A stretch of DNA of 64,000 bases. Origin: a virus. The stretch is from the IMG/VR virus record IMGVR_UViG_3300023502_000002. The stretch is one strand, 5' to 3'. Positions 2 to 58,344 of this stretch are shown here, piece by piece. Each line of letters opens with the position of its first letter. Position 1 is the first letter of the stretch. A model generated the notes under the pieces. It was given only the letters and a program-made list of their open reading frames with translations. It was not told the DNA's origin and ran no database searches. Made by a program: the position numbers and the translations under genes.

Positions 2-505
2 TCAATGACGGATAACGGCATTAAGGAATATATGGAAAGGACATACGGTGGAGAAACAACAAAGCAGAGAATAAACACAAACACAAACAGATTTCGCGCT
101 GTTGTTGAAGTATATCTTGCCAATACATTACTGTCAATAAAAACGAACAATATAGAAAAAATAACAGATGAGGTTCAAAAGAAGATATGGAATAACATAT
201 CATCACCATATAACGTATCATTTATTCCGCCAAGCAAACAGAAACACTACGGTAGAGGATATGCTACAAACGGTATAAGCCAGTTGTATGTTATAGAACA
301 ACAGATGATTCTAGGTATTTTCAATGAAGCAAATTACAACTCATGGAAAAACATTCCAAATTTCAAGGGATGGAGGACAGCAGTAACGTCTAAAAATCCA
401 TGCCAGTTCTGCATTGACGAGCAATATAGAATACACACAGACAGACCTAAGCTGCCGTTCCATGCCCATTGCTTGTGTATATTATATCCAGTATTCAATA
501 CATAA
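2..505 (+). CDS. head morphogenesis/minor capsid protein (SPP1 gp7 / Mu F-like), C-terminal part; 5' end probably outside window
   Basis: Frame open to window edge. C-terminal NPCQFC...PFHAHCLC resembles the Cys/His signature of Phage_Mu_F-type proteins. Confidence 0.5.
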   Translation, partial: SMTDNGIKEYMERTYGGETTKQRINTNTNRFRAVVEVYLANTLLSIKTNNIEKITDEVQKKIWNNISSPYNVSFIPPSKQKHYGRGYATNGISQLYVIEQQMILGIFNEANYNSWKNIPNFKGWRTAVTSKNPCQFCIDEQYRIHTDRPKLPFHAHCLCILYPVFNT

Positions 506-3731: not shown

Positions 3732-4328
3732 CTAAATGGTTAATTCTTCCTCTTCCTCTTTCGACAATGCTTCCACATCACCATCTTCACCTTTAGGGAA
3801 ATACAGTTCGTCAAGATAATTGCTCGCTTCACTCTTTTCAGTGAAACTCTTTATAACACTCCCCCGTTTGCTAACGACACGGTAACTAATATTATCCTCT
3901 GCTACAACTTTGTAACAATTTAAATCATCCACATCTACAACATCGGGAGCATTATCATCAATACGCATCATGCTCAATATATGAGAATACTCGTTCACCT
4001 TCACCGTACAGGAAAAAACATTAGGAACTGGTTCTATTATCAATCCGGCATTTATCAATGAATCAAAAACAGAACGCCTGGGCTTGTATTTCAGTTGCCT
4101 CCTTATAAACTTCAACGTTATCATATTATCTCCCCTCTGTGCGGATAATACGCACAAACGTAATACCCGTAACGCATCAATACTACATAGAGGTGAAAGG
4201 TACTTGTACAACTGGACAGGAGTAAATTTATGGAAATAATCAAATACTCCCTCTTCCTCTATTTCCTTTACACGCCTTTCCCTTTCTTTATTCCTTACCG
4301 TCAAATTAGTAGTTTTCCTTACCGACAT
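3732..4328 (-). CDS. hypothetical protein (198 aa), acidic C-terminus
   Basis: ORF, ATG checked; no motif recognised. Confidence 0.6.
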   Translation of the reverse strand: MSVRKTTNLTVRNKERERRVKEIEEEGVFDYFHKFTPVQLYKYLSPLCSIDALRVLRLCVLSAQRGDNMITLKFIRRQLKYKPRRSVFDSLINAGLIIEPVPNVFSCTVKVNEYSHILSMMRIDDNAPDVVDVDDLNCYKVVAEDNISYRVVSKRGSVIKSFTEKSEASNYLDELYFPKGEDGDVEALSKEEEEELTI

Positions 4329-4331
4329 AGA

Positions 4332-5018
4332 CTACCCTTTCCATGTATCGTTTTCCTTTATCCATTTACGTTCATCATCACTAAGATCACCTGTTGATTC
4401 ACGATGATATACACACTTGTTGCATAACCCTGCCTTGGCACGGACACACTTGTCGCAATCGTATGGGAAAAACGCTATAGTTGTCTTGTCATAGAAATCC
4501 TCACTGGCATCATCATCAGAAAGCCATCCTTTGAACTTTGCAAGCATATCAAGCGCACCTTTCACATCCTTAAAATCAGCAGTGTCTATATCAGAACGCT
4601 TTAGGAAACTTTCTATAAGGCTTATCGCATCTTCAAATTCAAGGTTATCCTTGTTTATCAAAGTCTTTGTCTTTTCCTTATTCTCACCTTCCAATACACG
4701 CCTCATGGATGGTGTCACATAATCGGAAGCAAGCATGGAAGATTTGGCATAATTGACAATCTGGGTTATCCTTGGAGAATTAACCCATTGCTTGGCTTTC
4801 ATAAGCAAAGAACGCTCTGACATACCCTCGTCAATAACGTGTGTTGCCTTGTAAAACAAGACAGGATTGGTATCTATGACATAAGCGGACGCAGCCCATA
4901 ACTCCATCTCATTCGCATCATCAATATGCTTTGCTATATCAATCTTCTTCTGTTTTTCATCGTCAATAAGAAGATTGTTACTAAGGGGAAGTTTACCCCA
5001 TCCTTTATTCAAACCCAT
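4332..5018 (-). CDS. hypothetical protein (228 aa) with C-terminal Cys cluster
   Basis: ORF, ATG checked; CDKC...CNKC near the C-terminus suggests a zinc ribbon. Confidence 0.6.
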   Translation of the reverse strand: MGLNKGWGKLPLSNNLLIDDEKQKKIDIAKHIDDANEMELWAASAYVIDTNPVLFYKATHVIDEGMSERSLLMKAKQWVNSPRITQIVNYAKSSMLASDYVTPSMRRVLEGENKEKTKTLINKDNLEFEDAISLIESFLKRSDIDTADFKDVKGALDMLAKFKGWLSDDDASEDFYDKTTIAFFPYDCDKCVRAKAGLCNKCVYHRESTGDLSDDERKWIKENDTWKG

Positions 5019-10256: not shown

Positions 10257-11504
10257 TTATTTTATCTTTTCCAATATAACTATATATTCGTTGCACATCG
10301 TGCTTACCTTATTCCCACTTTCATTTGTTGGGCTTGCTTTAGAAGGCATTCTTTTGTTTGGTATTTCTCTTACTAAAGTATTTATATGTTTGAATCCATT
10401 TTTTTCAAACATTTCAGCAGTAAAGAAATCAAGATGTATTTGTATGCCTTTTACAGTTCTATTCCCTACTACATAGCAAACAATTCCTCCTGGCATTATT
10501 ACTTTGGCAACATTTGATATAGATTTAGAATAATCATTTAAGAAAGAAATGACGTCATAATATCTATTGATATCATAAGATTTTATTTTATCTAAGGCAT
10601 CTCTTATACAAATTGTTGTGAATGATTCTTCTGTTTGCTTTTTCCCACCCATTAAAATGCAGTCAAGGTTTTTAGCGTTTTCAAAGCCAAACCATTCATT
10701 TGCCCATCTTGAAAATTGGCCGTATGCAACGGTTGTTTTACTATCTCCATAAGGTGGAGAAGTTACTACCATATCAACTGTTTCAGGCTTTATAATTTCC
10801 TCTGGAATACATATACTACTGTTGAAATCATAAATCCCTACTTTACTATCTTTGTTTGCGTTATTGAATTGAATAAGCCCTTTAATATTTCTTACTGTTT
10901 TTTCTTCAAATAGCCTAAACACGTCTGGCTTAAATGTTTTTATCTTTTCTTCTGGCATTCTGAAACGTTTGAACTCTCCGTTTCTTGTAAAAGATACTTC
11001 TCTCACAACCTCAGATAAAACAGTGTTGAAAAAGTCTTTAAGTTCTTTAGGTATATGATTATTTATAATCTGTGATAAATACGATAATCTCATAAGACTA
11101 TCTTCTGAATACCAATAGCTATAATTTGAAATATTATCAAAGCATTTTTTTTCTACAAGTTCTTCTTTATATTCAGATAAGTAAGATTGTATAACACTAA
11201 AGTTGTATTGTATATCTTTCTCTTTATAATGTGTGGTCTTTACTTTGCTTATTAGTCTTGCTAACGGGTTAATATCTGTTCCTATTACATCTATCCCTTT
11301 AATTGATGCTTCTACCAGTGAGGTTCCACTACCCATATATGGATCAAGAATTAGTTTAGCACCTTCTTGGGGAATGTATTCTTCAATTAAAGTTCTTGCT
11401 ATTTGTGGAATCATCATTGCCGGATATGTGTGATAACAATGAGTGTATTCCTTTGTATTTGAGCCTTTGAAACTCCATCTGTTATCAATAGTTCTTTTAT
11501 ACAT
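10257..11504 (-). CDS. DNA methyltransferase (N4-cytosine or N6-adenine; SPPY type)
   Basis: AdoMet motif DPYMGSGTSLVEA and catalytic TSPPYGD. Confidence 0.75.
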   Translation of the reverse strand: MYKRTIDNRWSFKGSNTKEYTHCYHTYPAMMIPQIARTLIEEYIPQEGAKLILDPYMGSGTSLVEASIKGIDVIGTDINPLARLISKVKTTHYKEKDIQYNFSVIQSYLSEYKEELVEKKCFDNISNYSYWYSEDSLMRLSYLSQIINNHIPKELKDFFNTVLSEVVREVSFTRNGEFKRFRMPEEKIKTFKPDVFRLFEEKTVRNIKGLIQFNNANKDSKVGIYDFNSSICIPEEIIKPETVDMVVTSPPYGDSKTTVAYGQFSRWANEWFGFENAKNLDCILMGGKKQTEESFTTICIRDALDKIKSYDINRYYDVISFLNDYSKSISNVAKVIMPGGIVCYVVGNRTVKGIQIHLDFFTAEMFEKNGFKHINTLVREIPNKRMPSKASPTNESGNKVSTMCNEYIVILEKIK

Positions 11505-20384: not shown

Positions 20385-20742
20385 TTTTATGCTTTTTGGA
20401 ATTGTTTTTGCTATGATAATGAAAGCTATATGTGGAAATATGTTGGACGATTGATGATTGTCATTGTATGGCTTATTGTGTTACAGGTCTTGTCTGAATG
20501 TTAATTATGAAATATTTAAGAATACATTTGATTGTATGGTGTTTGCCTTGTATAATATATGGTATTAATGAACAAATGAAAACCATTGTAAAAATTTAAC
20601 ACATAATGTTTTCTAATATCGTTATATAGTATCACATTTGCACCATACAGGGATAGGAACGGAGTGGCTACCTTCCGACAAGCCGAAGTCAGTACGGCTT
20701 CCCTGTTCTCCTTTTTACTGGCGAAACATAATACTGGCTAAT

Positions 20743-21957
20743 ATGCAATTAGTTTATAAATTTGAGATCAACCATTCCGACAGGCTTTGCGCTATCTGCC
20801 GTGTTACGAATAACCTGTACAACCAGGCGTTGTATATTGTCCGTAACGAGTTGAAGGATAACGACAGGTGGCTGTTCTATCCCGACTTGGACAGGATAAT
20901 GAAGAACGTCACCAACCTTGAAGGTACGGTGAATTACAGACTTGTGAAATCACACGTAGCACAACAGACATTGCGCGTGCTTGACAAGGCAATGAAGGGA
21001 TATGTCAAGGCTGTAAAGGATTGGTCTAAGAATCCGGGGAAGTATAACGGTAAGCCCGAACTGCCATGCTATCACAAACGTGGTGGGATGAGCAATGCGA
21101 TATATACCAACCAGTCGTGCAAGATACATGACGGGTATATAATCCTTGACCGTGACTTGAAAATACCCGTTCCTCAATGGGAAAAGTACAAGGACAGAAT
21201 CGAACGGTTCAAACAGGTTAGGATAATCCCAAAACGTACATACATGACCGTAGAGGTTGTATATGATTGTGGCTGTTCGGATAATGTCGGTACGGGTATG
21301 GCTTCAATAGACTTGGGTGTGAACAACCTTGCCACGCTGGTTTGCGGATGCAATGCGCTGCTGTTTTCCGGCAAGGTTGTCAAGTCATACAACAGATGGT
21401 TTAACAAAACATTATCCATGCTGCAATCCATAAAGGACAGGCATGGGATAGACAAACTGACAAACAGGATGAGAAAGATGTATGATAAACGTGAACGGTT
21501 TATGAATGATGCGATGCACAAGACAAGCAGGCGTATCGTTGATTATCTTGTATCACACCATATAGGCACTCTTGCTGTAGGCTACAACAAAGGATGGAAG
21601 CAATCCGTCAATATGGGCGGAGTAACCAATCAGAAGTTTACATTCATCCCTTTTGCGAGGTTGAGAAGCTGCCTTAGATACAAGTGTGAACTTGCAGGTA
21701 TCAACTATATCGAACATGAGGAAAGTTACACTAGCAAATGTGATGCTCTGTCTATGGAGGATATATGCAAGCATGATAGTTATCTCGGTAAGCGCATCAA
21801 GCGAGGGCTGTTCAAGTCGGCAATTGGAAAGGTTATCAATGCTGATGTCAACGGTGCGCTTAATATCGGTAGAAAAGTATTCGGTGATTCATTTATGATA
21901 ACTGATAGCGGGCGTTGGTATCGCCCCGAACGGATTAACGTTCTAAAATGTGTATAA
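20743..21957 (+). CDS. tnpB: TnpB (OrfB) RNA-guided RuvC-like nuclease
   Basis: N-terminus MQLVYKFEI... with NLYNQALY. RuvC motifs: SIDLGVNNLAT, IEHEESYTSKCD and NADVNGALNIGRK. Track start 20638 is TTG; ATG is at 20743. Confidence 0.8.
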   Translation: MQLVYKFEINHSDRLCAICRVTNNLYNQALYIVRNELKDNDRWLFYPDLDRIMKNVTNLEGTVNYRLVKSHVAQQTLRVLDKAMKGYVKAVKDWSKNPGKYNGKPELPCYHKRGGMSNAIYTNQSCKIHDGYIILDRDLKIPVPQWEKYKDRIERFKQVRIIPKRTYMTVEVVYDCGCSDNVGTGMASIDLGVNNLATLVCGCNALLFSGKVVKSYNRWFNKTLSMLQSIKDRHGIDKLTNRMRKMYDKRERFMNDAMHKTSRRIVDYLVSHHIGTLAVGYNKGWKQSVNMGGVTNQKFTFIPFARLRSCLRYKCELAGINYIEHEESYTSKCDALSMEDICKHDSYLGKRIKRGLFKSAIGKVINADVNGALNIGRKVFGDSFMITDSGRWYRPERINVLKCV

Positions 21958-35598: not shown

Positions 35599-36327
35599 AT
35601 GAAAAATAACATTAATCCTTGGGAAGTGTTTGATGAGATTGAATGTTCCCATAATCCTGAATATATTATTTGTGTGTCACATCTTAGACATTACACGAAT
35701 ATTTTTGGCATAGATAAAAGGCTTGTAGACTTTCTTGGAATGGAAAAGAATACAATATTAGATATCGAAACATTTTGTTTTGGCGAAATGGATGTTTTCG
35801 GAATAAAAGAAGATTGTGTATCTGTAATAGAAGATTGTAAAAGACAAAGGGAAGCAAAGAAACAAGCCTTGGAGAAAAACAGGAAATTGACAGACATGCT
35901 AAAATTGAAACGTGAAAATATGTGTGGCATAGGTACAAGAAAGGTGAAATTAATGCTTAATAAAAAGATAAAACAAGGAAATTTTACAGCTAAAATTTAT
36001 CGTGTTGCATTGGAATTACAAGATTATAATATAAAGGCTAAAGGTGCTCCGTTTCCTTACTCGGAAAAGATGTATGCAAAGAAAGAAGATTTGATTGATA
36101 AACTTATCGAATTATACAAAAATATACAACTACCTTTTGGTCGTTCAGAGGATAAAAATAAAAGAGTTTCTTTTATCGTATATTTTGATCTTCCTTTAGG
36201 TAATCAAATTAGTTTTCATTCTACAATAAAAAGAGATATACCTCTATACGGGAAAGAGTGGGATGGATTGGTAAACAGTACATTGGACAAGTTAGAAAAA
36301 GAAATAAAACAATATTTAAACATTTAA
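35599..36327 (+). CDS. hypothetical protein (242 aa)
   Basis: ORF, ATG checked. Confidence 0.6.
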   Translation: MKNNINPWEVFDEIECSHNPEYIICVSHLRHYTNIFGIDKRLVDFLGMEKNTILDIETFCFGEMDVFGIKEDCVSVIEDCKRQREAKKQALEKNRKLTDMLKLKRENMCGIGTRKVKLMLNKKIKQGNFTAKIYRVALELQDYNIKAKGAPFPYSEKMYAKKEDLIDKLIELYKNIQLPFGRSEDKNKRVSFIVYFDLPLGNQISFHSTIKRDIPLYGKEWDGLVNSTLDKLEKEIKQYLNI

Positions 36328-36329
36328 TC

Positions 36330-37253
36330 ATGGGAAAAAATTTACTTAATAACGATGGTAAAATTGCCTTGTTTCACGAAACGATAAGGCTTGACTTTAA
36401 TCTGCCTAAATACTCCATTATAGAGCAGAAAGATCCTAATCCAAGTGTAATGTCTTATGATTTTCTTAAACAGTACATGGAAAGCAATGATAAGGAAGGA
36501 GTGGCGGAATTTAATCTTACCGTTTCACCGACAATGCTTGATTCTGTAAAAACAAACCAGGAACACAAGCAAGTAAGACCCTTCCTTCTTGATAGAAAAC
36601 ATAAGGAAAACTCATGGTTTAAAAAGATTAAGGATTATATAGACGAATACAGAAGATCCAAGTTTGACGTAATACATTTCTTTTCTGAGGTGAAGATACA
36701 GGCAGAAAACGAAATGAAGCAATACAGGGATAGGATAAAAGATTATATACTGATGCTAGGTTATGCTGAAAGATCAGGTCAATATGCCTTGAAAGAAAAA
36801 CTGTTCCGAAACATGGTGATATGCAAATACGAAAGCATATTGTTCAGCAAAGGATTATACAAGGCTATATCAGAGGAAAATCTTATGAAGTTTGCAAAAG
36901 GATGTCCGAAAAATCTATGCCTTGATTATATTTCTGACTATACTAGAATCATACCATTTGACATAATTAGGAAAAAGACGGATATAGACAAATATGAAAT
37001 ATTCGACAACTATGTTATTCTTCACTATGACTTTGATAATAACGGAACAGATTTACCGTCTGACAAGAAAAAAGAGGAGGTGGAAAAAAGAAAAGACCCT
37101 ATTCTGTTTGGTGTTATTGCAGGAAGCAACAAACTATACTTCATCGGTGACTGGATTGACGAGTATTGCGATTTGCGGTTCGATGATGTGGTAAAACAAT
37201 GCACGGACGATTTCTTGTCAGAAAACATTTCTTTGGATGATCTTGCAAAATAG
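36330..37253 (+). CDS. hypothetical protein (307 aa from ATG 36330)
   Basis: ATG lies 2 nt after the upstream stop; track start 36258 would overlap by 70 nt. Confidence 0.6.
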   Translation: MGKNLLNNDGKIALFHETIRLDFNLPKYSIIEQKDPNPSVMSYDFLKQYMESNDKEGVAEFNLTVSPTMLDSVKTNQEHKQVRPFLLDRKHKENSWFKKIKDYIDEYRRSKFDVIHFFSEVKIQAENEMKQYRDRIKDYILMLGYAERSGQYALKEKLFRNMVICKYESILFSKGLYKAISEENLMKFAKGCPKNLCLDYISDYTRIIPFDIIRKKTDIDKYEIFDNYVILHYDFDNNGTDLPSDKKKEEVEKRKDPILFGVIAGSNKLYFIGDWIDEYCDLRFDDVVKQCTDDFLSENISLDDLAK

Positions 37254-39202: not shown

Positions 39203-40276
39203 ATGGAAAACGAAGAAAGAACAATTCAGATTCTCGCTGAAACAATAGATAGGTTAAACAAGACGATAGAATCACAGAACAGGTTGATTGAGGATTTAAA
39301 AAACAGACTTGAAACAATTCAGAACGAATATAGCCCTTCAATTATGACTGTAGGAGTATTGATAGAAAAGTTGAATAATACAAAGACAAGAAGCGGAAAG
39401 GTAAGATTTGAAGCATTATCCAAACATATAATGCCATATCTTACCAATCAGCTTTATGACGAGTATGATTTTAATGATGCCATTCCTACGTTCAAGGAAG
39501 TCCCGTCCGTTGAAAAGCCTGTCAATCGTGACATGATAGATGATATGATCAATGTTATAAAATCAAAGAGAAAGATAAGCGAATCATCCCAAAAGGCATA
39601 TCTTTTAATGCTTAAAAGAATATTGTCCGAATCAAAAGAGATGAGTAAATATATCAATGATTATATTATCTCTCTAGACGTAAAATCTCCTTCAAATATA
39701 TCTCTTACGGAGGAAGAAATAGAACTATTCTGGAATGTTGAGCCATTTGACGTTACGGAAAAAATTGTAAAGAAATTGTTTCTGATACAATGCTATACTG
39801 CCATGAGATATTCCGATATTTTCAGATTGAAAGATTCTATGATGGAGGGAAATGTTATTTCGTATATATCAAAAAAGACAGGTAAGAACGTTGAGGTTCC
39901 TGTACCTTCCAAGATTATAGAAATGATAAAAGAGGTTAGATCGTTCGATAAATACAATATAGAATCTTCCTTAAAGACTACTATGAATGAAGTTCTACCA
40001 ACTCTTGGATGTAGAGCAGGTATAAACAAGCAGGTATTTGTAAGACGGGCAAATGTACTTATGAAAGGGCCGAAGTACCAGTTCATCAAAACACATACAG
40101 GACGTAGAACAGCTATTACCAGATGGGCTAATATGGGAATACCAGAAGGAGAACTGAAATCTATGGCTGGTCATTCTGATATAAGAACCACGAACAGATA
40201 TATTACTGCAAGCGTATCAAATAAAACCAAAAATATTTTAACGGATGGAAATATTGGAGAATGTGCTGTCGATTGA
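39203..40276 (+). CDS. tyrosine recombinase / phage integrase family protein
   Basis: ..AMRYSD.., HTGRRTAITRWA, GHSDIRTTNRYI (R..HxxR..H..Y catalytic set). Confidence 0.8.
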   Translation: MENEERTIQILAETIDRLNKTIESQNRLIEDLKNRLETIQNEYSPSIMTVGVLIEKLNNTKTRSGKVRFEALSKHIMPYLTNQLYDEYDFNDAIPTFKEVPSVEKPVNRDMIDDMINVIKSKRKISESSQKAYLLMLKRILSESKEMSKYINDYIISLDVKSPSNISLTEEEIELFWNVEPFDVTEKIVKKLFLIQCYTAMRYSDIFRLKDSMMEGNVISYISKKTGKNVEVPVPSKIIEMIKEVRSFDKYNIESSLKTTMNEVLPTLGCRAGINKQVFVRRANVLMKGPKYQFIKTHTGRRTAITRWANMGIPEGELKSMAGHSDIRTTNRYITASVSNKTKNILTDGNIGECAVD

Positions 40277-48007: not shown

Positions 48008-48901
48008 TTAGCAATTGCAACCACAGTTGTCACCAGCAGCATAACCTGCACCAAAACCAGCCATGAACGGATAACCTCCATAGCAACAATTTGGGTTAGG
48101 CACAAAATATGCTGGAACCGGGCACGGAGCCTTAAGTTGTCCAACTATATTTGCAGTCTGAGCCTGTTGAGAAGCAGCCAGAGCCAAATTGCTGTTTTCC
48201 TGTCTAAGTGCATCTATCTTGTTTTGCATTTCACGCATTTCAAGCTGACAGAATTTATCATTGATGATAGCTGTTTGAGCGTCTATCTTTGCGCCAAGAA
48301 TGTTAAACTGAGTGTTTGCATTGCTTGTCAAAGTATTGGTCTGCTCTACAGTAGCCAAACGGCTATCACATCCTTGACGTTCAATAGCTGTACGGATATC
48401 GCAGCAGCAAGAAGCAAGCTGAGAACCGATAGCTGCACTATTGGACTGAATTGAGTTGATGATCTGTTGAGAGGAAAGACCTACTTGGTTACCAACTTGC
48501 TGAATCTGTCCTTGAATTTGGCAGATAGCATTCTGCAACTGTTGAGTAGAGCAGTTCAAAGAACTAGCCAACTGATTGATAGCTGTTCCGTTTCCTTGAA
48601 TAGCGTTCATCAACAATTCACGTCCTGCTTCATTGTTCAATTGAGCAGGGATTCCGTTTGCTCCATTGCCAAACCCGTTACCGAATCCGTTACCACCCCA
48701 CAGGAAGAAGAGCAGGATAATCCAGATCCACCAACAACCAGCACCACCCCAAGCGTCTTGATTGTTTTTATTGCTCATAAGAGCGGCAACCATATTGGGG
48801 TCTAATCCTTTATTCTGCAACAGTGCAGGAATCATTGACATAATACCTGCGCTTTCTCCAGCGGCAGGATTGTCGAACATAAAAATTTTGTCTGAACCCA
48901 T
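48008..48901 (-). CDS. Gly/Gln/Asn/Cys-rich membrane-anchored coiled-coil protein (297 aa)
   Basis: TM segment WWIWIILLFFLWGG, GFGNGFGNG, long Q/N-rich heptad-like region, C-terminus CCYGGYPFMAGFGAGYAAGDNCGCNC. The ATG at 48901 lies downstream of the leader hairpin. Confidence 0.6.
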   Translation of the reverse strand: MGSDKIFMFDNPAAGESAGIMSMIPALLQNKGLDPNMVAALMSNKNNQDAWGGAGCWWIWIILLFFLWGGNGFGNGFGNGANGIPAQLNNEAGRELLMNAIQGNGTAINQLASSLNCSTQQLQNAICQIQGQIQQVGNQVGLSSQQIINSIQSNSAAIGSQLASCCCDIRTAIERQGCDSRLATVEQTNTLTSNANTQFNILGAKIDAQTAIINDKFCQLEMREMQNKIDALRQENSNLALAASQQAQTANIVGQLKAPCPVPAYFVPNPNCCYGGYPFMAGFGAGYAAGDNCGCNC

Positions 48902-48931
48902 AATATTGTAATTTAATGTGTGTGTATTATA

Positions 48932-48966
48932 ACTCCCGTAAAGACTGTGCACTCATCTTTACGAGT
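48932..48966 (-). promoter_or_regulatory. 5' leader hairpin (11 bp, 2-nt bulge)
   Basis: actcccgtaaaga (48932-48944) pairs with tctttacgagt (48956-48966). Confidence 0.45.
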
Positions 48967-49350: not shown

Positions 49351-49719
49351 CTAGCTTTTAGTCTTGTATTTGCCCCTTGACTTCTTTGGACGTATAAGCC
49401 CGTTGTTTTTAAGAGCATCCAATGTTTCTTTCAAATAAACGGGTTTTGTCATTCCTTGTACTCTCACGGGAGATAATAACGGTTGTACGGGATGAAACTT
49501 AGTGCCTTTGTATGTAAGCCTTGCAAATTCTGTATCGCTTACATCGAGATATTTTATGGCATTTTCTCTATCAAAATAAGACGGTATGATAGTTGATCTG
49601 TTTATTGCGTCAGTAAGGAAGTTGAACTGTTCCGCATCAACATTCGAGTTTCCGCTTTTCAATGCTAGAGATATCCCGTCAAGTAAGGAAGCTAATATAG
49701 TGTTATAATTCATGCCCAT
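49351..49719 (-). CDS. hypothetical protein (122 aa), basic C-terminal tail
   Basis: ORF, ATG checked. Confidence 0.55.
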   Translation of the reverse strand: MGMNYNTILASLLDGISLALKSGNSNVDAEQFNFLTDAINRSTIIPSYFDRENAIKYLDVSDTEFARLTYKGTKFHPVQPLLSPVRVQGMTKPVYLKETLDALKNNGLIRPKKSRGKYKTKS

Positions 49720-49722
49720 GTC

Positions 49723-50049
49723 CTACTCAATAGATGAAATATTCGCTGTTCCTGTAATATTTACTTTGCTTCCCGGTGTAACTGAAAAATATTCCACTGT
49801 TCCTGCTGGAAGAAGCATTCCTGTTGGTGCTATCCTGCTTGACCTGCTTTTTGTTTCCTGTACCAATGAGATACGGCATCCTTCTGATGTGGCTACCCTT
49901 ATCAAGTTTGACAATACTGTGTACTCCTTATCGGTAACATCTTCGGATGCTGATATTCTTGCAGCTACTATACCTTTTAACGCTTCATCTTTTGAAGCGT
50001 TTTTGGTGGAGAAATATCCACCTATCTGTTGTTTGTCATTGCTCTCCAT
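49723..50049 (-). CDS. hypothetical protein (108 aa)
   Basis: ORF, ATG checked. Confidence 0.55.
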   Translation of the reverse strand: MESNDKQQIGGYFSTKNASKDEALKGIVAARISASEDVTDKEYTVLSNLIRVATSEGCRISLVQETKSRSSRIAPTGMLLPAGTVEYFSVTPGSKVNITGTANISSIE

Positions 50050-50392
50050 ATCCTTTTAAGTAAGATTGTTTAACACTTTCGGCAAACTCGTTCAGCTTTA
50101 CATAATCTGCATCAAGTTTGTTTAAAATACCTTTTCTGAGAGCCGCTTCTTCCTCACCGTTGGGAAATTCATCCTTTATGGCGGCATCTACCGTTTTGTC
50201 GTATGATACAGGGTTCTTTACACGCTGTACATCGGCTTTCCACTTTTTGACGAACTTTTCCTGTACAATATTTCCCATATCGTCCGTTTCGGGTTCGTCA
50301 ACTTGTTCAATGTTTAAATGAACATTGCTATATCCAGTGCCTAAATCAAAGATAAAGGCAGGCTTCTCGTCAAAAATCAAACCTCTTTCCAT
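50036..50392 (-). CDS. hypothetical acidic protein (118 aa) immediately downstream of the RT
   Basis: ORF, ATG checked. Confidence 0.55.
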   Translation of the reverse strand: MERGLIFDEKPAFIFDLGTGYSNVHLNIEQVDEPETDDMGNIVQEKFVKKWKADVQRVKNPVSYDKTVDAAIKDEFPNGEEEAALRKGILNKLDADYVKLNEFAESVKQSYLKGYGEQ

Positions 50393-50395
50393 ATT

Positions 50396-51685
50396 TTAAA
50401 TATCTAATGTTCCGTCAAAATAATAGCCCCTATTGAATTTTATGACAACATCCTCCAATGGTAAAAGGCTTTTGTCTACTTGGGAAAGAAATGTTCCTAA
50501 CGCTTCGTATCCGCCTTTCATAAAGCATTTTTCTCCTTTGAACATTATCTGCATCCTTACCCATGTGCTATTGTCCTTCTTTGTGGATGGTCTTACATCG
50601 AAATCAAGAATGTCTATATGTTCATCGACAAGTTTGTCTATCTTCACATCTTTTCCGTCAAACTTTCTTGACACCCTTATATTCAAGTCACTAATCTTTG
50701 TCATGTGGCTATTATTATTAACTAAAACTTTATTAATTAAGTTTTTAGAATCACAGTGCATCAACATACCCATATAACTCGTAATTGATTTTGGGTTATT
50801 ACGTTTTGACGCAAAGTTTTTCTTTATTCTCTTTCTTATTTTGGTATGACCGGGAGTAAAGACAAATCCACCGAAATCTATCCCTTCTGAAACGGGGAAT
50901 ATTCTGTAATTTTTCTTCATCTCCAGCTTTTTTTCATACCACAGGTAATTTCTTATCCTCCACAGCCATTCATGCAACTGTTTCTTGTCGTGGGATAATA
51001 TCACCATATCATCGGCAAATCTGAAATAATGCTTTACTTTGAACTGCTCCTTTATAACATGATCCAAAGACCTTAATACCAAATGGCTTCCTATCTGAGC
51101 GTCAGGATTGCCAATAGCCAGACCTTTGTTGCTGTAATTAAGCGTATTCATAAGCCATAACGCATCCCTGTCTTTCAAGTCTTTGCTATATGCCTTCTTG
51201 TAAACGCTGTGTCTTACGGACGGATAAAACTTCTTAATATCCATTTTCAAAACGTATATTTTTCCGTTTTTGTCCATTTCAAGCAATGTCCGTTTCATCT
51301 TTCTCACAAGGGAGTGCTTTTTAACCTTACTTGTAATACCCCTTTTGGGCAGACAGTTATATGAATCAAGTGTAAGGCTTTTTGTCCATCTGTCCATCAT
51401 GGGTATCAAAAGGCTGTGCTGGATAATCCTGTCCGGGTAAAACGGGAGTTTGTGTATCTCCCTTACCTTTCCTGCATCAGTCACTTTCTCTATCACCTCA
51501 TACTTGCTTACATGGTACGATTTGTCTTTGAGCATCTGATAAACATTCTGATGATATTCATCCTTATGTTTCTCATAATCCCTCACACCCCTGTGATTCC
51601 TCTTTCCTTTCTTTGCCTTTTCAGCAGCAGAGATAATATTATCCATACTGCCTATCGTTTCAAAAATATTATTCAATCTTTTCAT
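50396..51685 (-). CDS. DGR-type reverse transcriptase (429 aa)
   Basis: RT motifs: YVLKMDIKKFYPSV, GLAIGNPDAQIGSHLVL (DGR-like IGNxxxQ), YFRFADDMVIL (YxDD-type), GIDFGGFVF. Lies adjacent to the TR. Confidence 0.85.
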   Translation of the reverse strand: MKRLNNIFETIGSMDNIISAAEKAKKGKRNHRGVRDYEKHKDEYHQNVYQMLKDKSYHVSKYEVIEKVTDAGKVREIHKLPFYPDRIIQHSLLIPMMDRWTKSLTLDSYNCLPKRGITSKVKKHSLVRKMKRTLLEMDKNGKIYVLKMDIKKFYPSVRHSVYKKAYSKDLKDRDALWLMNTLNYSNKGLAIGNPDAQIGSHLVLRSLDHVIKEQFKVKHYFRFADDMVILSHDKKQLHEWLWRIRNYLWYEKKLEMKKNYRIFPVSEGIDFGGFVFTPGHTKIRKRIKKNFASKRNNPKSITSYMGMLMHCDSKNLINKVLVNNNSHMTKISDLNIRVSRKFDGKDVKIDKLVDEHIDILDFDVRPSTKKDNSTWVRMQIMFKGEKCFMKGGYEALGTFLSQVDKSLLPLEDVVIKFNRGYYFDGTLDI

Positions 51686-51840
51686 CTTACGTGCTTTTCT
51701 TTGTCCGTTGAGCCAAAGATAACTAACTTTCCATATACCTACAACTGTAAATGTACTAATAAGTTCCCATTCTCAAACAATGGGTTGTCTTGACATTTTC
51801 CATCTTCCTGACGAGGCTTCTGTATAGCAGTAATTTTTTT

Positions 51841-51954
51841 TAGCACGTTAGCTGCCACCGATGTTCGTGTTCGCATTCGAAGGGGCATTGTTCGCATTAC
51901 CATTCCGCAGAGAACAATTGTCGTTGTCCGACTTACCACCAAAGTAAACACCAC
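51841..51954 (-). repeat. DGR template repeat (TR)
   Basis: 114 nt aligning with 52124-52237 at offset 283. Rich in AAY codons in the target frame and contains an in-frame TAA. Confidence 0.85.
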
Positions 51955-52041
51955 CATTCTACAGACCGCCTTTTTTCAACTAACCGCCTTTGACAGACTT
52001 ATTTAACTTTGCTGACGCATTTGGTTAGATTTTTAATTATG

Positions 52042-52049
52042 CAAACTTA
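52042..52049 (-). promoter_or_regulatory. -7 box TAagTTTG, candidate promoter of the TR-RT transcript
   Basis: Reverse complement of caaactta; lies between VR and TR. Confidence 0.4.
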
Positions 52050-52087
52050 AACATTATTAATATATTTTGCAAGTTTTGGGAGGGGGA

Positions 52088-52106
52088 TTTTTCACTTCGT
52101 GAAAAA
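52088..52106 (-). promoter_or_regulatory. perfect 8-bp hairpin with 3-nt loop straddling the target stop codon (DGR target-site hairpin candidate)
   Basis: tttttcac-ttc-gtgaaaaa. Confidence 0.5.
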
Positions 52107-54137
52107 ATAGGGTTGGGTTATTGTACAACGAAAGCCGCCACCGACGTTCGAGTACGCATACGAAGGGGCAAAGAACGCAGAACCAGACCGCAGAGAACAA
52201 TTGCCGTTGTCCGACCCACCACCAAAGAAAACACCACGCCTTCCAATCTTACCCGAACCTGCATTTCCCGTAAACCAGTTGTAATGGCATTCCCCCGTGT
52301 GAAGATTGCTTCCCTTGACCTCTCCAATAAGAGAGTTCTTAAAGTTCTTCGTTATGCATCCTTCACCTCTAGCCATAGAACCGACAAATTCATATGTGTT
52401 CTCAAATCCATAAGATTCCCCGGGATTCTTATCTGCGGCTACATTGTCTGTAGTCAGATTGTTTACGTCATAGGTCTGATAAATATCTATGGATGTAGAA
52501 TCGTGCATGACACAATCTATCCCACTGTACCACATCCATATATCTCCCCACCCGGCAATACGTCCCCGAATGATAGGTTGCGTGAAGCATATTTCTATTT
52601 CACGATTTGTCACTGCCGCATTATCTGGAATACTCCACCCACTGGTTACAGTTGCATTGACAAATTTGGCTACGATACCTGACATTTCCCCGTCAGCCAA
52701 TCCGTTATGACCTTGGAAGTTGTAGTATTTGTATTTTGTGCTTTCATATTTAAACTCGGTGTCGGGAGCGACATTGTGTTCCTTTGCGTATGACATGGCA
52801 AGCTGCGCTTCAAACATCTTCATGCAAGGATGGTAGTTGTTTATAAGCTGTGAAAAATTGTAAGCAGTTCCTGTTTCTGATGCTTTAAATCCTTGCCCGT
52901 TCATCTTGTAATACACATAGGTCTGACCGTCCGCCTTCTTGAATCTGACGCCTGTCATTTTCCCCCAGCTTGACGCATCGGGGGCTGAATCGTTGGATGA
53001 TATTCCTTTTCCGCAAACAGACTGTGCGTGTAGGTCTTTTGTTCTGAATTTGATAAAGAGAAGCGTACACCACACTTCAAGGTCAAGAACGAAAGCATTT
53101 GCATAAGGATAGTTCTTCGTAATGTTCGGGTTCTTTGCCCTGGCGTATTTCTCGTAATCAAAACGTGACACGTTTGTCGTAGGCCATCCATTTCCTTCCA
53201 TTATGTTCACGCCTAGATTTCCTACTGATGTTCTTCCTTTTACCGTGTTGTCAAAAATAGATCTCTGCTTCCCATCCTTTATCGTGGAGTAACCGATACT
53301 CATTCCGAACGGTTTTATCTCTATGGCCGTATCGCCACCGTATGTAAACGGAGCGTCACTGACGAGCCTTCTTTCGTATGTATCATCCGTTCCTCCGTTG
53401 ATTATCCAGAAAGGCTTGGTGTTTACAAGCATGATGTCGCTTCCATCATCTGTTACATCAGTTCCGTCAATAACAATATTTGACGGGCTACCGTCAGCCA
53501 TTTTGAAGAAATTGGTCTGGTCAAGAAATCCGACTACCTTACCGTCCTTTACCTTTGCCACATGGAACGAGTTTAGGATGGGATGGGATTGTTTGAACTC
53601 TTCCTTTCCTATCCATGTCTGAAAGACCGGGTCTGACTGTCCTCTTCTCATCTCCACTCCATATATGTTCCCCTGCTGCATCTTTATCTGTTCGAGAAGC
53701 GTTTTGTAGTCATTGGTGAAGTCGTTTGTGGATAACGCCTTGCCGTCCACCTTGTCCACCTTCTTGTCTAGGGCTGCTTTCTGTGCGGTGGATACGGGCT
53801 TTTCGGCATCGGACGTATTGTCCACCTTTGACAGACCTATATTGTCTTTCGTTATATTGACATTCCCTGTCCTGTAAGACTGTTCGGCATTACCTTTCAC
53901 GCCTATGACGGTATTCTTCTGTGCACCTTCCTGTATCCCGTCAAGTTTGGTTTTTAACTGGGTAGTAAAGTTGTTGTCGGTATGCACATAGCTTTCGTCC
54001 TTTACCATGCCCTGTCTTATCTTGGACACCGTGACGGATTTGTTCTGTTTAGGGTCCCCTGTCACACACGGTATCATCTCTTCTCCCGTAGCGGTTTCAA
54101 CGGGAGGCATCTGTGAAATTTTAAGATTATCTTCCAT
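52092..54137 (-). CDS. DGR target: tail-fibre-like protein with C-terminal variable (C-type-lectin-like) tip
   Basis: N-terminal fibre motifs (..GKALSTNDFT..). The C-terminus ...GGGSDNGNCSLRSGSAFFAPSYAYSNVGGGFRC is typical of CLec-fold DGR variable proteins and contains the VR. Confidence 0.85.
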   Translation of the reverse strand: MEDNLKISQMPPVETATGEEMIPCVTGDPKQNKSVTVSKIRQGMVKDESYVHTDNNFTTQLKTKLDGIQEGAQKNTVIGVKGNAEQSYRTGNVNITKDNIGLSKVDNTSDAEKPVSTAQKAALDKKVDKVDGKALSTNDFTNDYKTLLEQIKMQQGNIYGVEMRRGQSDPVFQTWIGKEEFKQSHPILNSFHVAKVKDGKVVGFLDQTNFFKMADGSPSNIVIDGTDVTDDGSDIMLVNTKPFWIINGGTDDTYERRLVSDAPFTYGGDTAIEIKPFGMSIGYSTIKDGKQRSIFDNTVKGRTSVGNLGVNIMEGNGWPTTNVSRFDYEKYARAKNPNITKNYPYANAFVLDLEVWCTLLFIKFRTKDLHAQSVCGKGISSNDSAPDASSWGKMTGVRFKKADGQTYVYYKMNGQGFKASETGTAYNFSQLINNYHPCMKMFEAQLAMSYAKEHNVAPDTEFKYESTKYKYYNFQGHNGLADGEMSGIVAKFVNATVTSGWSIPDNAAVTNREIEICFTQPIIRGRIAGWGDIWMWYSGIDCVMHDSTSIDIYQTYDVNNLTTDNVAADKNPGESYGFENTYEFVGSMARGEGCITKNFKNSLIGEVKGSNLHTGECHYNWFTGNAGSGKIGRRGVFFGGGSDNGNCSLRSGSAFFAPSYAYSNVGGGFRCTITQPYFFTK
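52124..52237 (-). repeat. DGR variable repeat (VR)
   Basis: Differs from the TR at 19 TR-adenine positions (coding strand), plus 2 non-A positions at the 3' IMH-like end. Confidence 0.85.
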
Positions 54138-56218: not shown

Positions 56219-57514
56219 ATGAATGTATTAAGCCTTTTCGATGGAATGTCGTGCGGACGGATAACACTTTCCGAACTTGGCATTCCTGTAGAAAAATATT
56301 ATGCGTCCGAAGTGGACAAGTTTGCCATAAAGGCAACCATGCAGAACTTTCCTGACATCATACAGGTTGGTGATGTAAGAGAACTTGAAGTAAGCAGACT
56401 GGATAAGATAGATTTGATAATCGGAGGATCGCCATGTACTAATCTGTCCATGTCTGGCAAGAGAAAAGGGCTTTCAACGAAAGAAGGCATGGAGGTTCTA
56501 GACTTGCAAACGTATCTTGAATTGAAGGAGAACGGTTTTGAATTTGAAGGGCAATCCTATCTGTTTTGGGAATACATACGTATATACCACGAACTTATTA
56601 AGCGTGGTGACAATCCCAAATTCTTCCTTGAAAATGTGGAAATGGGAAAGAAATGGGAATCTGTGTTCAATGAAACAATGGGTAGGAAAGGAATACATAT
56701 CAACTCCGCACTTGTATCGGCACAAAACAGAAGGCGCATATACTGGACGGATATCCATGACGATATTCCACAGCCGGAAGATAGGGGAATACTTTTAAAG
56801 GATATCCTTGAAGAAGAGGTTGATGAAAAATATTTCTTGTCTGACAAGATGATTGAATGCTTGAAGGGCAGGGTAAAGGTGGAAAATGATCCGATATGTG
56901 TTGCGATGCGAGGGCGTGAATCAGCCTGCCTTACTCCAAAAAGAACCGAATATGGAAAAAAGATAAGAAAGGAATATGAAGCCGGGATTGTAAAGGAACA
57001 GAGAAAGAACATCCAACAGCTTGAACCTAGGGAAGATGGAAAAACCAATTGCCTTACAACAGTACAAAAGGATAATCTGATAGTTGTTTCGGGAACGATA
57101 TGTGGATTTGGAGGGAGGCATTTCCGTGAAATAAAATCTGGTAAATCATGTACACTGCTGGCAAGGGCTAGAAATGATGGAAGCACACAACCATGCGTTA
57201 TAATTGGCACTCCTAATATTGCCGATATTACAATTCCAAACAAATATATAAAGAAAAATATACGCAGTATAGACGATAAGGCTCATACATTACTTGCTAC
57301 ATCACACAAGGGAGCAATGGCAAACGGTATGACGCTAGTTGATAACGGTAATTTTCGCATTCGTAGGCTTACCCCAACCGAGTGTGCACGGCTTCAAACT
57401 ATTTCCGAATGGTATATATGGGATGGAATATCCGATACTCAGCGTTACAAGATGCTTGGGAACGGATGGAATATAGAAACAATCAAACATATATTTAAAT
57501 ATTTAAGACGATGA
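56219..57514 (+). CDS. DNA (cytosine-5)-methyltransferase 1 (431 aa)
   Basis: LSLFDGMSCG, GGSPCTNLS, ENV, QNRRRIYW, LGNGW. Confidence 0.85.
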   Translation: MNVLSLFDGMSCGRITLSELGIPVEKYYASEVDKFAIKATMQNFPDIIQVGDVRELEVSRLDKIDLIIGGSPCTNLSMSGKRKGLSTKEGMEVLDLQTYLELKENGFEFEGQSYLFWEYIRIYHELIKRGDNPKFFLENVEMGKKWESVFNETMGRKGIHINSALVSAQNRRRIYWTDIHDDIPQPEDRGILLKDILEEEVDEKYFLSDKMIECLKGRVKVENDPICVAMRGRESACLTPKRTEYGKKIRKEYEAGIVKEQRKNIQQLEPREDGKTNCLTTVQKDNLIVVSGTICGFGGRHFREIKSGKSCTLLARARNDGSTQPCVIIGTPNIADITIPNKYIKKNIRSIDDKAHTLLATSHKGAMANGMTLVDNGNFRIRRLTPTECARLQTISEWYIWDGISDTQRYKMLGNGWNIETIKHIFKYLRR

Positions 57515-58344
57515 ATGTACTAAGTTTATGTGACGGGATAGCTTGTGGACGTACTGCACTAGAGAGAGCAGACATAAAGGTAGACAAGTATTACGCAAGC
57601 GAAATAAACGAACCGTCTATCAAGGTTGCACTGGATAATTATCCCGATATAATTGAATTAGGGGATATTAGAAACTGGGACAAATGGGATATACAGTGGA
57701 AAGATATTGATTTATTGATTGGCGGAACACCATGCCAGGATTTCTCACAGTTAGGGAAAGAGAAACTGAACTTCGATGGAGAGCGTTCGGGATTGTTCTT
57801 TGAATACGTCAATATACTCAACCACATCAGACAGTTCAATCCTAACATAAAGTTCATGCTCGAAAACGTGAAGATGAAATCCGATTGGGCTGATTTGATT
57901 TCGTCACATCTTGGAGTAGACTATGTGTATATCAACAGTTCCGATTTCTCCGCGCAAATGAGAGCAAGATACTACTGGTGCAACTGGGAAATACCTGCAT
58001 GGAAGGACAAGGGAATATTGTTCAAGGACATAATCACGGACGGGTATGTGGAGAAAGACAAGTCATGGTGTATGCTTGAATCATGGAACAGGTTTGCCAA
58101 GAACCCCGAATCACTGTTGAGAAGATATAAAAAATCACTTACACCGCTTATATTCAACTCACCCGACTGTAATCCCGAAAAAGGTTTCAGAACGCCAAAT
58201 ATTACGGAAGCGGAAAGATTACAGACCGTACCCGAAGGATACACCAAGTCGGTACAACCACATATAGGCATGGGGATGTTAGGTAACGGATGGACAGTAG
58301 ATGTAATTAGTCATATTTTGAAAGGAATGAAAGGAATAAAATGA
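57511..58344 (+). CDS. DNA (cytosine-5)-methyltransferase 2 (277 aa)
   Basis: LSLCDGIACG, GGTPCQDFS, ENV, QMRARYYW, LGNGW; ATGA overlap with the upstream gene. Confidence 0.8.
   Translation: MNVLSLCDGIACGRTALERADIKVDKYYASEINEPSIKVALDNYPDIIELGDIRNWDKWDIQWKDIDLLIGGTPCQDFSQLGKEKLNFDGERSGLFFEYVNILNHIRQFNPNIKFMLENVKMKSDWADLISSHLGVDYVYINSSDFSAQMRARYYWCNWEIPAWKDKGILFKDIITDGYVEKDKSWCMLESWNRFAKNPESLLRRYKKSLTPLIFNSPDCNPEKGFRTPNITEAERLQTVPEGYTKSVQPHIGMGMLGNGWTVDVISHILKGMKGIK

Follow-up and report, generated by a model that had tools for sequence, protein, structure and literature searches.

How has a phage come to carry, at the 3′ end of a tail-fibre-like gene, a sequence that departs from a nearby second copy chiefly at adenines? 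This question is raised by positions 50,396 to 54,137 of a 64,000-nucleotide (nt) stretch of viral DNA (IMG/VR record IMGVR_UViG_3300023502_000002; the whole stretch is hereafter called the window), where the two copies lie beside a gene for a reverse transcriptase (RT). We are confident that the locus is an active diversity-generating retroelement (DGR) of the kind that lacks the accessory gene avd, carried by a gut phage of ~95 kb that probably infects Bacteroidota. An earlier sequence-only reading had proposed that the adjacent DGR RT directs hypermutation at adenines to the C-terminal tip of the fibre-like protein, and the population data described below strengthen this core claim. The argument turns on four features:

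52092..54137, minus strand: the target gene, encoding a tail-fibre-like, putative receptor-binding protein (open reading frame (ORF); PHROG, model and homology)
52145..52237, minus strand: the mutagenised part of the variable repeat (VR), codons ~635-665 of the target, matching positions 1-93 of the template repeat
51841..51954, minus strand: the template repeat (TR), from its alignment with the VR; 14 alleles in 68 relatives
50396..51685, minus strand: the DGR reverse transcriptase, 429 amino acids (aa) (RVT_1, phrog_1423, match to bRT, motifs)

When the TR (51841-51954) was re-aligned with the VR (52124-52237) at an offset of 283, 21 mismatches were found over 114 nt, 19 of them at TR adenines, which are T on the plus strand and A on the coding minus strand. 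Nineteen of the 29 TR adenines therefore differ in the VR (hypergeometric P = 1.7e-12), and the other two mismatches, at 51843 and 51844, lie at the 3′ end in the coding orientation. The counts given by the sequence-only reading (offset, length, mismatches and adenines) all held on recount, its in-frame translations of both repeats were exact, and the recount that it had named as a check capable of refuting it left the mismatches at TR adenines apart from the two at the 3′ end. Only a single VR-like copy is present in the 64-kb window, both strands of which were scanned for matches at the non-adenine TR positions. The VR covers codons ~635-671 of the target; in the mutagenised part, corresponding to TR positions 10-93, each of the 25 adenines occupies the first or second position of its codon, and nine codons are of the AAY form. 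The locus thus has the properties by which a DGR is recognised: TR/VR differences that lie overwhelmingly at TR adenines, and a VR within a protein-coding target, read against an AAY-rich TR with its adenines at codon positions 1 and 2.

Does the VR diversify in nature? The exact RT protein is also present on other public contigs, and a scan of viral contigs yielded 147 relatives; we retained 80, representing 76 distinct loci. Among the 78 viral-contig loci listed, 76 belong to the same phage lineage, with an intact RT of 93-100% identity, on contigs of up to 99 kb. We aligned 74 sequences over a region of 771 nt that begins at the 3′ end of the target and runs to the start of the RT; 68 of them are distinct, and these 68 relatives contain 68 different VRs against only 14 TRs. 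At TR-adenine cells of this alignment the VRs hold 1152 mismatches (59% of such cells), the adenine having been substituted by G in 466 cases, by T in 431 and by C in 255. At non-adenine cells there are 167 mismatches, 136 of them at two fixed positions of the 3′ end, which leaves 31 in ~5600 cells (~0.5%). Mean divergence is 0.226 in the mutagenised VR versus 0.036 outside it, and where two phages are identical across 657 flanking columns, 12-18 of the 93 VR positions still separate them. Furthermore, at non-adenine sites where TR alleles vary, 693 of 699 VR cells hold the base found in the TR of the same phage. Taken together, the VR and TR counts, the pairs with identical flanks and the matching of each VR to its own TR demonstrate that sequence passes from TR to VR, that the errors made in copying are specific to adenines, that this happens far more quickly than the background diverges, and that the VR has diversified between relatives within natural populations. 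Diverged cassettes in other phage or prophage backgrounds show the same bias, with adenine/non-adenine mismatches of 21/0 and 11/0.

The 3′ ends of the two repeats and the sequence that follows the VR contain elements resembling the DGR sequence for initiation of mutagenic homing (IMH), its TR counterpart IMH*, and the hairpin that accompanies them:

52124..52144, minus strand: IMH-like 3′ end of the VR, TCGGTGGCGGCTTTCGTTGTA, with a GC-rich start and five near-fixed differences from the TR
51841-51861, minus strand: IMH*-like 3′ 21 nt of the TR, TCGGTGGCAGCTAACGTGCTA, the counterpart of the VR end TCGGTGGCGGCTTTCGTTGTA
52088..52106, minus strand: inverted repeat after the VR, TTTTTCAC-GAA-GTGAAAAA (DNA fold -5.8 kcal/mol, z = -2.8)
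52042..52049, minus strand: candidate Bacteroidota-type -7 promoter box, TAAGTTTG (TAnnTTTG motif match; invariant across relatives)

Across the 68 relatives, TR positions 102, 106, 107, 111 and 112 differ near-fixedly from the VR (TCGGTGGCAGCTAACGTGCT versus TCGGTGGCGGCTTTCGTTGT), and the same contrast is found in diverged cassettes whose RTs are 57-58% identical. An IMH/IMH* arrangement has been reported for nearly all DGRs (PMC5758913), and the locus appears to have it, with non-identical ends on VR and TR and a GC-rich start. The inverted repeat sits 18 nt past the VR, its 5′ arm overlapping the usual stop codon of the target. The stem is 9 bp long in 67 of the 68 relatives and 8 bp in the window, and the 3-nt loop is GAA in 57 relatives, AAA in seven and TTC in four. 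A change of the stop codon from TAA to TAT in the window (52092-52107) adds five residues to the target and removes one stem pair; the length of 681 aa given by the sequence-only reading accordingly holds for the window, whereas 67 of the 68 relatives encode 676 aa, with the stop at codon 677. In L001 and three other relatives the loop is flipped (GAA to its reverse complement TTC; window 52096-52098) while the stem is the same, as expected from an inversion across the inverted repeat.

The lineage also includes natural variants, namely one eroded TR, one naive VR and two deletion contigs. In L058 (IMGVR_UViG_7000000171_000055), nine TR adenines are replaced by other bases and the same bases stand at those VR sites; it looks as if the template had been overwritten by mutagenised sequence and had then kept templating, a form of template erosion. 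In L072, the VR equals its own TR over the whole mutagenised part and the IMH differences alone remain, which suggests non-mutagenic homing or a DNA-level conversion from the TR. Two contigs with neighbouring ENA accessions, L003 (2799-2802) and L004 (257-260), have an identical 1069-bp deletion equivalent to window 51705-52773, which takes the C-terminal third of the target, the VR, the hairpin and the TR and leaves an RT that is 100% identical. The junction shows a 4-nt microhomology (ACAA), and the deletion is either natural, giving a DGR-dead phage whose fibre is truncated, or an assembly artefact shared by the two contigs. An apparent tandem duplication of ~1.26 kb in L004 (257-5156; window ~49445-50704), spanning the RT 3′ end and the genes orf118 and orf108, could likewise be an assembly artefact. 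Three viral contigs (L012, L035 and L055) end within or beside the VR or TR, as would be expected if hypervariable or repeated sequence breaks assemblies.

What enzyme would carry out this copying? The product of the adjacent 429-aa ORF has an above-threshold match to Pfam RVT_1 and one to phrog_1423 at 1.9e-77, and its best match in the Protein Data Bank (PDB) is bRT, the DGR RT of Bordetella (8ub7, E 3e-21), followed by group II intron and retron RTs at 1e-5. The motifs reported by the sequence-only reading, an IGNxxxQ motif and a FADD box, are both present in this ORF, as IGNPDAQ at residues 191-197 and FADD at residues 223-226. Judged by these matches, the protein appears to be a DGR-type RT with a motif 4 and a YxDD-type catalytic box. 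In the phage collection its closest homologues are RTs of crAss-like phages (36-40% identity), and those of csAssE-Sib and hankyphage, at 28-29%, align with it through a C-terminal extension, which constitutes a domain of its own:

RT residues ~340-429, minus strand: RT C-terminal domain, ~90 aa (model pLDDT 86)

The model of this domain has the order beta1-beta2-beta3-alpha-beta4-beta5 with a mean predicted local distance difference test (pLDDT) of 86, and a Foldseek search of it against the PDB gave no significant match (best E 0.13), with scattered weak matches to oligonucleotide-binding (OB)-like folds. It ends RTs of 420-490 aa and some short, possibly fragmentary proteins, and comprises only 35 clusters at 50% identity. 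We considered and rejected the idea that the domain is a fused Avd or a basic nucleic-acid binder: the model is beta-rich, Foldseek gave no significant match and the isoelectric point (pI) is ~5.5. In one diverged cassette (L108, 2187-3278) the RT ORF is only 363 aa long and is followed by a 220-nt gap, so that the C-terminal domain appears lost or frameshifted; its TR and VR still have adenine-type differences.

We compared the RNA around the TR in six cassettes, including L067 (RT 93% identity), L102 and L105 (57-58%), L107 and L108, and found seven helices (H1-H7) that flank the TR and are supported by covariation:

51980..52028, minus strand: 5′ stem-loop of the template RNA, H1 and H2 (covariation, six cassettes)
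51960..51970, minus strand: 5′ arm of the long-range helix H3, pairing with 51815-51824
51717..51826, minus strand: structured spacer RNA between TR and RT, the 3′ arm of H3 and H4-H7 (covariation; covariance model R1, 118 bits)

H3, in which six of nine pairs show compensatory changes, closes the TR into a loop, and H4-H7 form four hairpins in the spacer (51814-51721). Overall, the structure has 44 pairs with 96.9% of cells paired and compensatory changes in 27 pairs; none of 500 shuffles reached these values, and sliding the structure by 1-3 columns reduced pairing to 33-43% and the compensatory pairs to 3-7. The structure emerges by covariation only, given that the spacer folded as a single sequence did no better than shuffles (z = -0.47), and an Rfam scan of the window was empty. 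The covariance model R1, built on the spacer, scores 118 bits at the window locus and has an untrained match immediately upstream of an RT of 43% identity in a Bacteroidetes metagenome-assembled genome (MAG) (E 1.9e-4), with no match in hankyphage, csAssE-Sib or cr50_1. In the Bordetella phage BPP-1, 20 nt upstream of the TR and nearly the whole ~140-nt spacer are required, and the cDNA is primed from the spacer (PMC6182149, PMC5703328). The conserved, structured RNA around the TR is consistent with an RNA intermediate and mutagenic cDNA synthesis, and by analogy priming might occur in the spacer here as well.

Which protein is being varied? Residues ~88-135 of the target match a motif common to many tail-fibre PHROGs. 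An AlphaFold (AF2) model built from a 32-sequence alignment is confident over residues 155-675, and among PDB structures searched with Foldseek its only significant match is the DGR variable protein TaqVP (5vf4; E 2.7e-4, probability 1.0). Among viral models (BFVD), its matches are a "receptor binding complex" fragment of an uncultured myovirus (97% identical), as well as tail fibre or tail collar fibre proteins of crAss-like (cr55_1, cr7_1 and others) and uncultured phages at 1e-13 to 1e-20; cr55_1 and cr7_1 are also among the phages with related RTs. The target is a homologue of the protein that the csAssE-Sib record marks as its DGR target (28% identity over 407 aa, E 4e-34). Its C-terminus carries the motif ...GGFRC, which we take to be the ending of VRs of the C-type lectin (CLec) kind. 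A CLec-like fold of the C-terminus is supported by the model but not proven, and the protein presumably binds a receptor, by analogy with BPP-1.

From these observations we propose the following model. An RNA running from ~52030 to 51715 on the minus strand would be transcribed, comprising the 5′ stem-loop, the 114-nt TR held in a loop by the long-range helix, and the spacer with its four hairpins. The adjacent 429-aa RT would copy the TR into cDNA, misincorporating opposite adenines, and the cDNA would take the place of the VR at the tail-fibre-like gene's 3′ end, the direction being set by the IMH-like end of the VR and the neighbouring hairpin. In this way ~15-17 codons on the C-type-lectin-like tip could be recoded, and the 15 adenine-containing TR codons allow ~5e14 possible proteins; the recoded tip would presumably change receptor specificity.

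Several observations weigh against the reading of the locus as an active DGR aimed at a tail fibre of a Bacteroidota phage. All of the VR variation that we saw is between assemblies. Motif 4 of the RT, IGNPDAQ, has Ala where DGR RTs usually have Ser (IGxxxSQ), although close relatives carry IGNPDSQ. The hairpin of the sequence-only reading is a real and conserved inverted repeat at the right place, but it is AT-rich, with two G-C pairs among its 8-9, unlike the GC-rich Bordetella hairpin; the promoter proposed in the same reading fared less well, as a sigma-70 scan from the VR and hairpin to the TR gave no match and what stands there is a Bacteroidota-style TAnnTTTG motif only, so that a promoter upstream of the TR RNA is possible on the strength of a motif match. 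Pfam offers no family for the target, its conserved 520-aa body included, or for 31 homologues, and sequence searches of the PDB with the target, both as a single sequence and as a profile, returned nothing useful. The comparison with CLec folds of the Mtd or TvpA type, which had been suggested as a check, turned out mixed: the TaqVP match is significant, whereas Mtd, the next PDB match, is not (E 0.15), and the CLec assignment rests on that one whole-protein match with low global template modelling (TM) scores (0.23/0.39), low because the model of the whole multi-domain 681-aa target was searched. No Avd was detected by Pfam at E <= 10 in the three small downstream ORFs or the RT C-terminus, a search of limited sensitivity because avd genes are poorly conserved; since the one DGR whose mechanism has been dissected cannot work without Avd, the biochemistry may differ here. 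Finally, the case for a Bacteroidota host, which we consider likely, is circumstantial.

Do any of these points favour a different explanation? If the element were a relic, the differences would be fossils of past activity and nothing would be diversifying now; one window cannot separate past from present activity, and the lineage does contain the two contigs that lost VR and TR with an intact RT and the one whose VR is identical to its TR. Yet no two of the 68 distinct relatives share a VR, identical flanks accompany 12-18 VR differences, each VR tracks its own TR allele, and the RT is intact in 76 of the 78 loci, all of which makes a relic highly improbable. The suggestion that the RT belongs to some other retroelement (a group II intron, a retron or a defence RT) and that the repeat is an ordinary duplication can draw on weak NCBIfam matches to group II, retron and Drt3a models; these scores all fall well short of the cut-offs for their families, bRT is the closest relative of known structure, and an ordinary duplication would neither confine its differences to one base on one strand nor exist in 68 versions, so that we give this suggestion practically no weight. 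A more substantial alternative accepts an active DGR and supposes that the target is another virion-surface or secreted lectin-like protein, such as a binder of mucus or host glycans. The sequence-level tail-fibre signal is indeed confined to the short N-terminal motif, the long conserved body belongs to no Pfam family, and the names of the BFVD matches are themselves predictions. Against this, the gene stands in a minus-strand run of tail-like genes (one ORF of 572 aa and another of 1330 aa, the latter with a match to a tail-fibre PHROG), the model matches annotated tail fibre or tail collar fibre proteins in several phage groups, and the family of the downstream partner gene matches a tail-protein PHROG; we therefore consider this alternative unlikely.

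With an active, tail-directed DGR as the preferred reading, what does the element use in place of Avd? The sequence-only reading had called the DGR complete and its order canonical. The TR-RT unit does stand beside its target, but these words overstate the case, because there is no avd, which in Bordetella lies between VR and TR, and here no ORF separates the two repeats. With no Avd or other accessory gene identified, the element belongs to the known avd-less class and does not have the Bordetella layout. By gene content it fits Architecture A of Wu et al. (2018), the TR-RT core without a recognisable accessory gene that made up 29% of their set (PMC5758913); Architecture B, in which an avd gene for a basic four-helix-bundle protein lies near the TR or RT, does not describe it, as there is no Avd match, the post-RT ORF is acidic and the RT C-terminal domain is beta-rich. 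That post-RT ORF is as follows:

50036..50392, minus strand: orf118, a small acidic ORF of 118 aa, pI 4.67, directly after the RT

We first considered orf118 as a DGR accessory gene and downgraded this idea on the evidence of DGR-less relatives. In its favour, the orf118 family directly follows the RT in diverged cassettes of two other genomic backgrounds, and the protein is small and acidic like the post-RT ORFs of hankyphage (pI 4.99) and cr50_1 (pI 4.73) and like CH1 as described for Architecture E, a small acidic protein of 160-169 aa and pI ~4.7 beside avd-less DGRs (PMC5758913), than which orf118 is shorter. However, in L109 and L110, which have neither RT nor TR, the orf118 family directly follows the fibre gene; long members of the family match a tail-protein PHROG and, weakly, DUF4376; and orf118 has no Avd match in Pfam and does not detectably resemble the ORFs that follow the RT in hankyphage and csAssE-Sib. 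A dedicated accessory factor replacing Avd is thus a rather unlikely role, if marginally less so than a non-fibre target. Because orf118-family genes follow the fibre gene even where there is no DGR, and because of the tail-protein match, orf118 is probably a partner of the fibre gene and not a DGR component, and the TR-RT unit behaves as an insertion or deletion between the two. The homologous fibre genes of the DGR-less relatives (L109 1705-3842, L110 990-4064) carry the same C-terminal scaffold motif, ...G[GR]FRV. In hankyphage jmh42 (L083, PV107404), the post-RT ORF labelled Avd (4302-4787, pI 5.0) matches Pfam DUF4376 (E 1e-6) and no Avd-type family, so the label may be wrong.

The role of Avd is to hold the template RNA on the RT. 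We tentatively raise the possibility, which we regard as the less probable outcome, that this lineage carries out mutagenic retrohoming independently of Avd, with a lineage-specific C-terminal OB-like beta-barrel domain of the RT, and an RNA scaffold that clamps the TR between the long-range helix and the four spacer hairpins, replacing Avd in this task. If so, the RT and its RNA alone would make a minimal two-component diversifier.

How does the locus compare with known systems? It shares with the BPP-1 DGR (mtd-VR-avd-TR-brt) a related RT (E 3e-21), adenine-specific transfer from TR to VR, a VR placed at the C-terminus of a tail-fibre protein whose tip is CLec-like (here in a model), the IMH/IMH* contrast at the 3′ ends with an inverted repeat after the VR, and conserved or required RNA on both flanks of the TR, both of which are structured in the window locus. 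It differs in lacking avd, in its AT-rich hairpin with a 3-nt loop, in the IGNPDAQ form of motif 4, in an RT that is ~100 aa longer by virtue of an extra C-terminal beta-rich domain, and in a target that is ~300 aa longer and has no sequence similarity to Mtd. The same order is found in the gut phage csAssE-Sib, on which a literature search found no paper and whose GenBank annotation (OR575929) reads tail fibre-VR-IMH-TR-IMH*-RT, likewise with no gene between VR and TR. The RTs align over 97% of their length, C-terminal extension included, and the targets are homologous; on the other hand, RT identity is 28%, csAssE-Sib is a different phage of 151 kb, its post-RT ORF is unrelated, and R1 finds no match there.

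Hankyphage (Bacteroides phage p00), whose DGR activity has been shown experimentally (PMC12135933), and the crAss-like phages cr50_1, cr55_1 and cr7_1 are likewise phages of gut Bacteroidales whose DGR targets a tail fibre, Quimbyvirus and crAss-like DGRs having been described previously (PMC8008677). Hankyphage resembles the window in the long C-terminal extension of its RT, which the crAss-like RTs lack, and differs in having a 64-aa ORF between VR and TR; neither hankyphage nor the crAss-like DGRs have nucleotide similarity to the window locus or a match to R1. In the survey of Wu et al., an extension at the C-terminus, up to ~150 aa long and of no known function, is present in ~20% of DGR RTs, and Lineage 3 lacks avd, its branch 3A being restricted to Bacteroides and relatives (PMC5758913). 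The window locus resembles Architecture A and Lineage 3 in having no recognisable accessory gene, a likeness of gene content; that survey describes neither an RNA scaffold nor a fold for the extension. Surveys have recorded more than 30,000 DGRs, with three clades found mainly in phages of gut Firmicutes, Bacteroidetes and Proteobacteria that have tail targets and are broadly active (PMC8144416).

Because tail-fibre DGRs of gut Bacteroidota phages are well catalogued (PMC8144416, PMC8008677, PMC12135933), the existence of this locus changes little; this kind of DGR was already known, and a homologous cassette is annotated in csAssE-Sib. The present study adds population-level proof of activity, the link between orf118 and the fibre gene, a fold-level description of the RT extension and a covariation-supported RNA scaffold. 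Its value lies in a well-documented natural example, in which many near-identical genomes carry different VRs and TR alleles are faithfully copied. Together with its natural variants, the lineage is a reasonable candidate for studying the course of retrohoming in the absence of Avd, and might perhaps serve as the basis of a smaller engineered diversifier.

Which host might the phage infect? The window's helicase has its best matches in phages that infect Parabacteroides, Nonlabens and Cellulophaga, Bacteroidota genomes hold the nearest cellular RTs, a related cassette lies in a bacterial genome beside genes for a TonB-dependent receptor, FecR and an extracytoplasmic function (ECF) sigma factor, and the candidate -7 box upstream of the template RNA is of Bacteroidota style. 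The sequence-only reading had spoken of a large Bacteroidota phage, which is plausible on these circumstantial grounds and on that of related contigs that reach 99 kb. In GTDB genomes no close RT was found (the best is 43% identical), and no close relative was found integrated; no host could therefore be assigned by way of a prophage. When the locus was compared with the phage collection by megablast, nothing matched, and a scan of viral contigs for a diverged variant of the upstream motif was likewise empty.

The window otherwise carries a helicase, a primase and a sliding clamp, followed by the minus-strand block of tail-like genes; a tRNA scan of it was empty. A tyrosine-integrase-like gene (phrog_1) and two transposase-like genes are present (39203-40276, 20638-21957 and 36258-37253, all on the plus strand), and the phage may be temperate or carry insertion sequences. 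At least three genes resemble DNA methyltransferases (56219-58344, plus strand; 10257-11504, minus strand), two of them adjacent cytosine-methylase-like ORFs, which suggests a heavy investment in anti-restriction. In the tail-side module, a minus-strand gene at 48008-48952 encodes a 314-aa protein in which a GNGFGNGFGNG repeat and a Gln-rich coiled region are combined with a Cys-rich C-terminus (...CGCNC); it matches phrog_16490, a family of unknown function.

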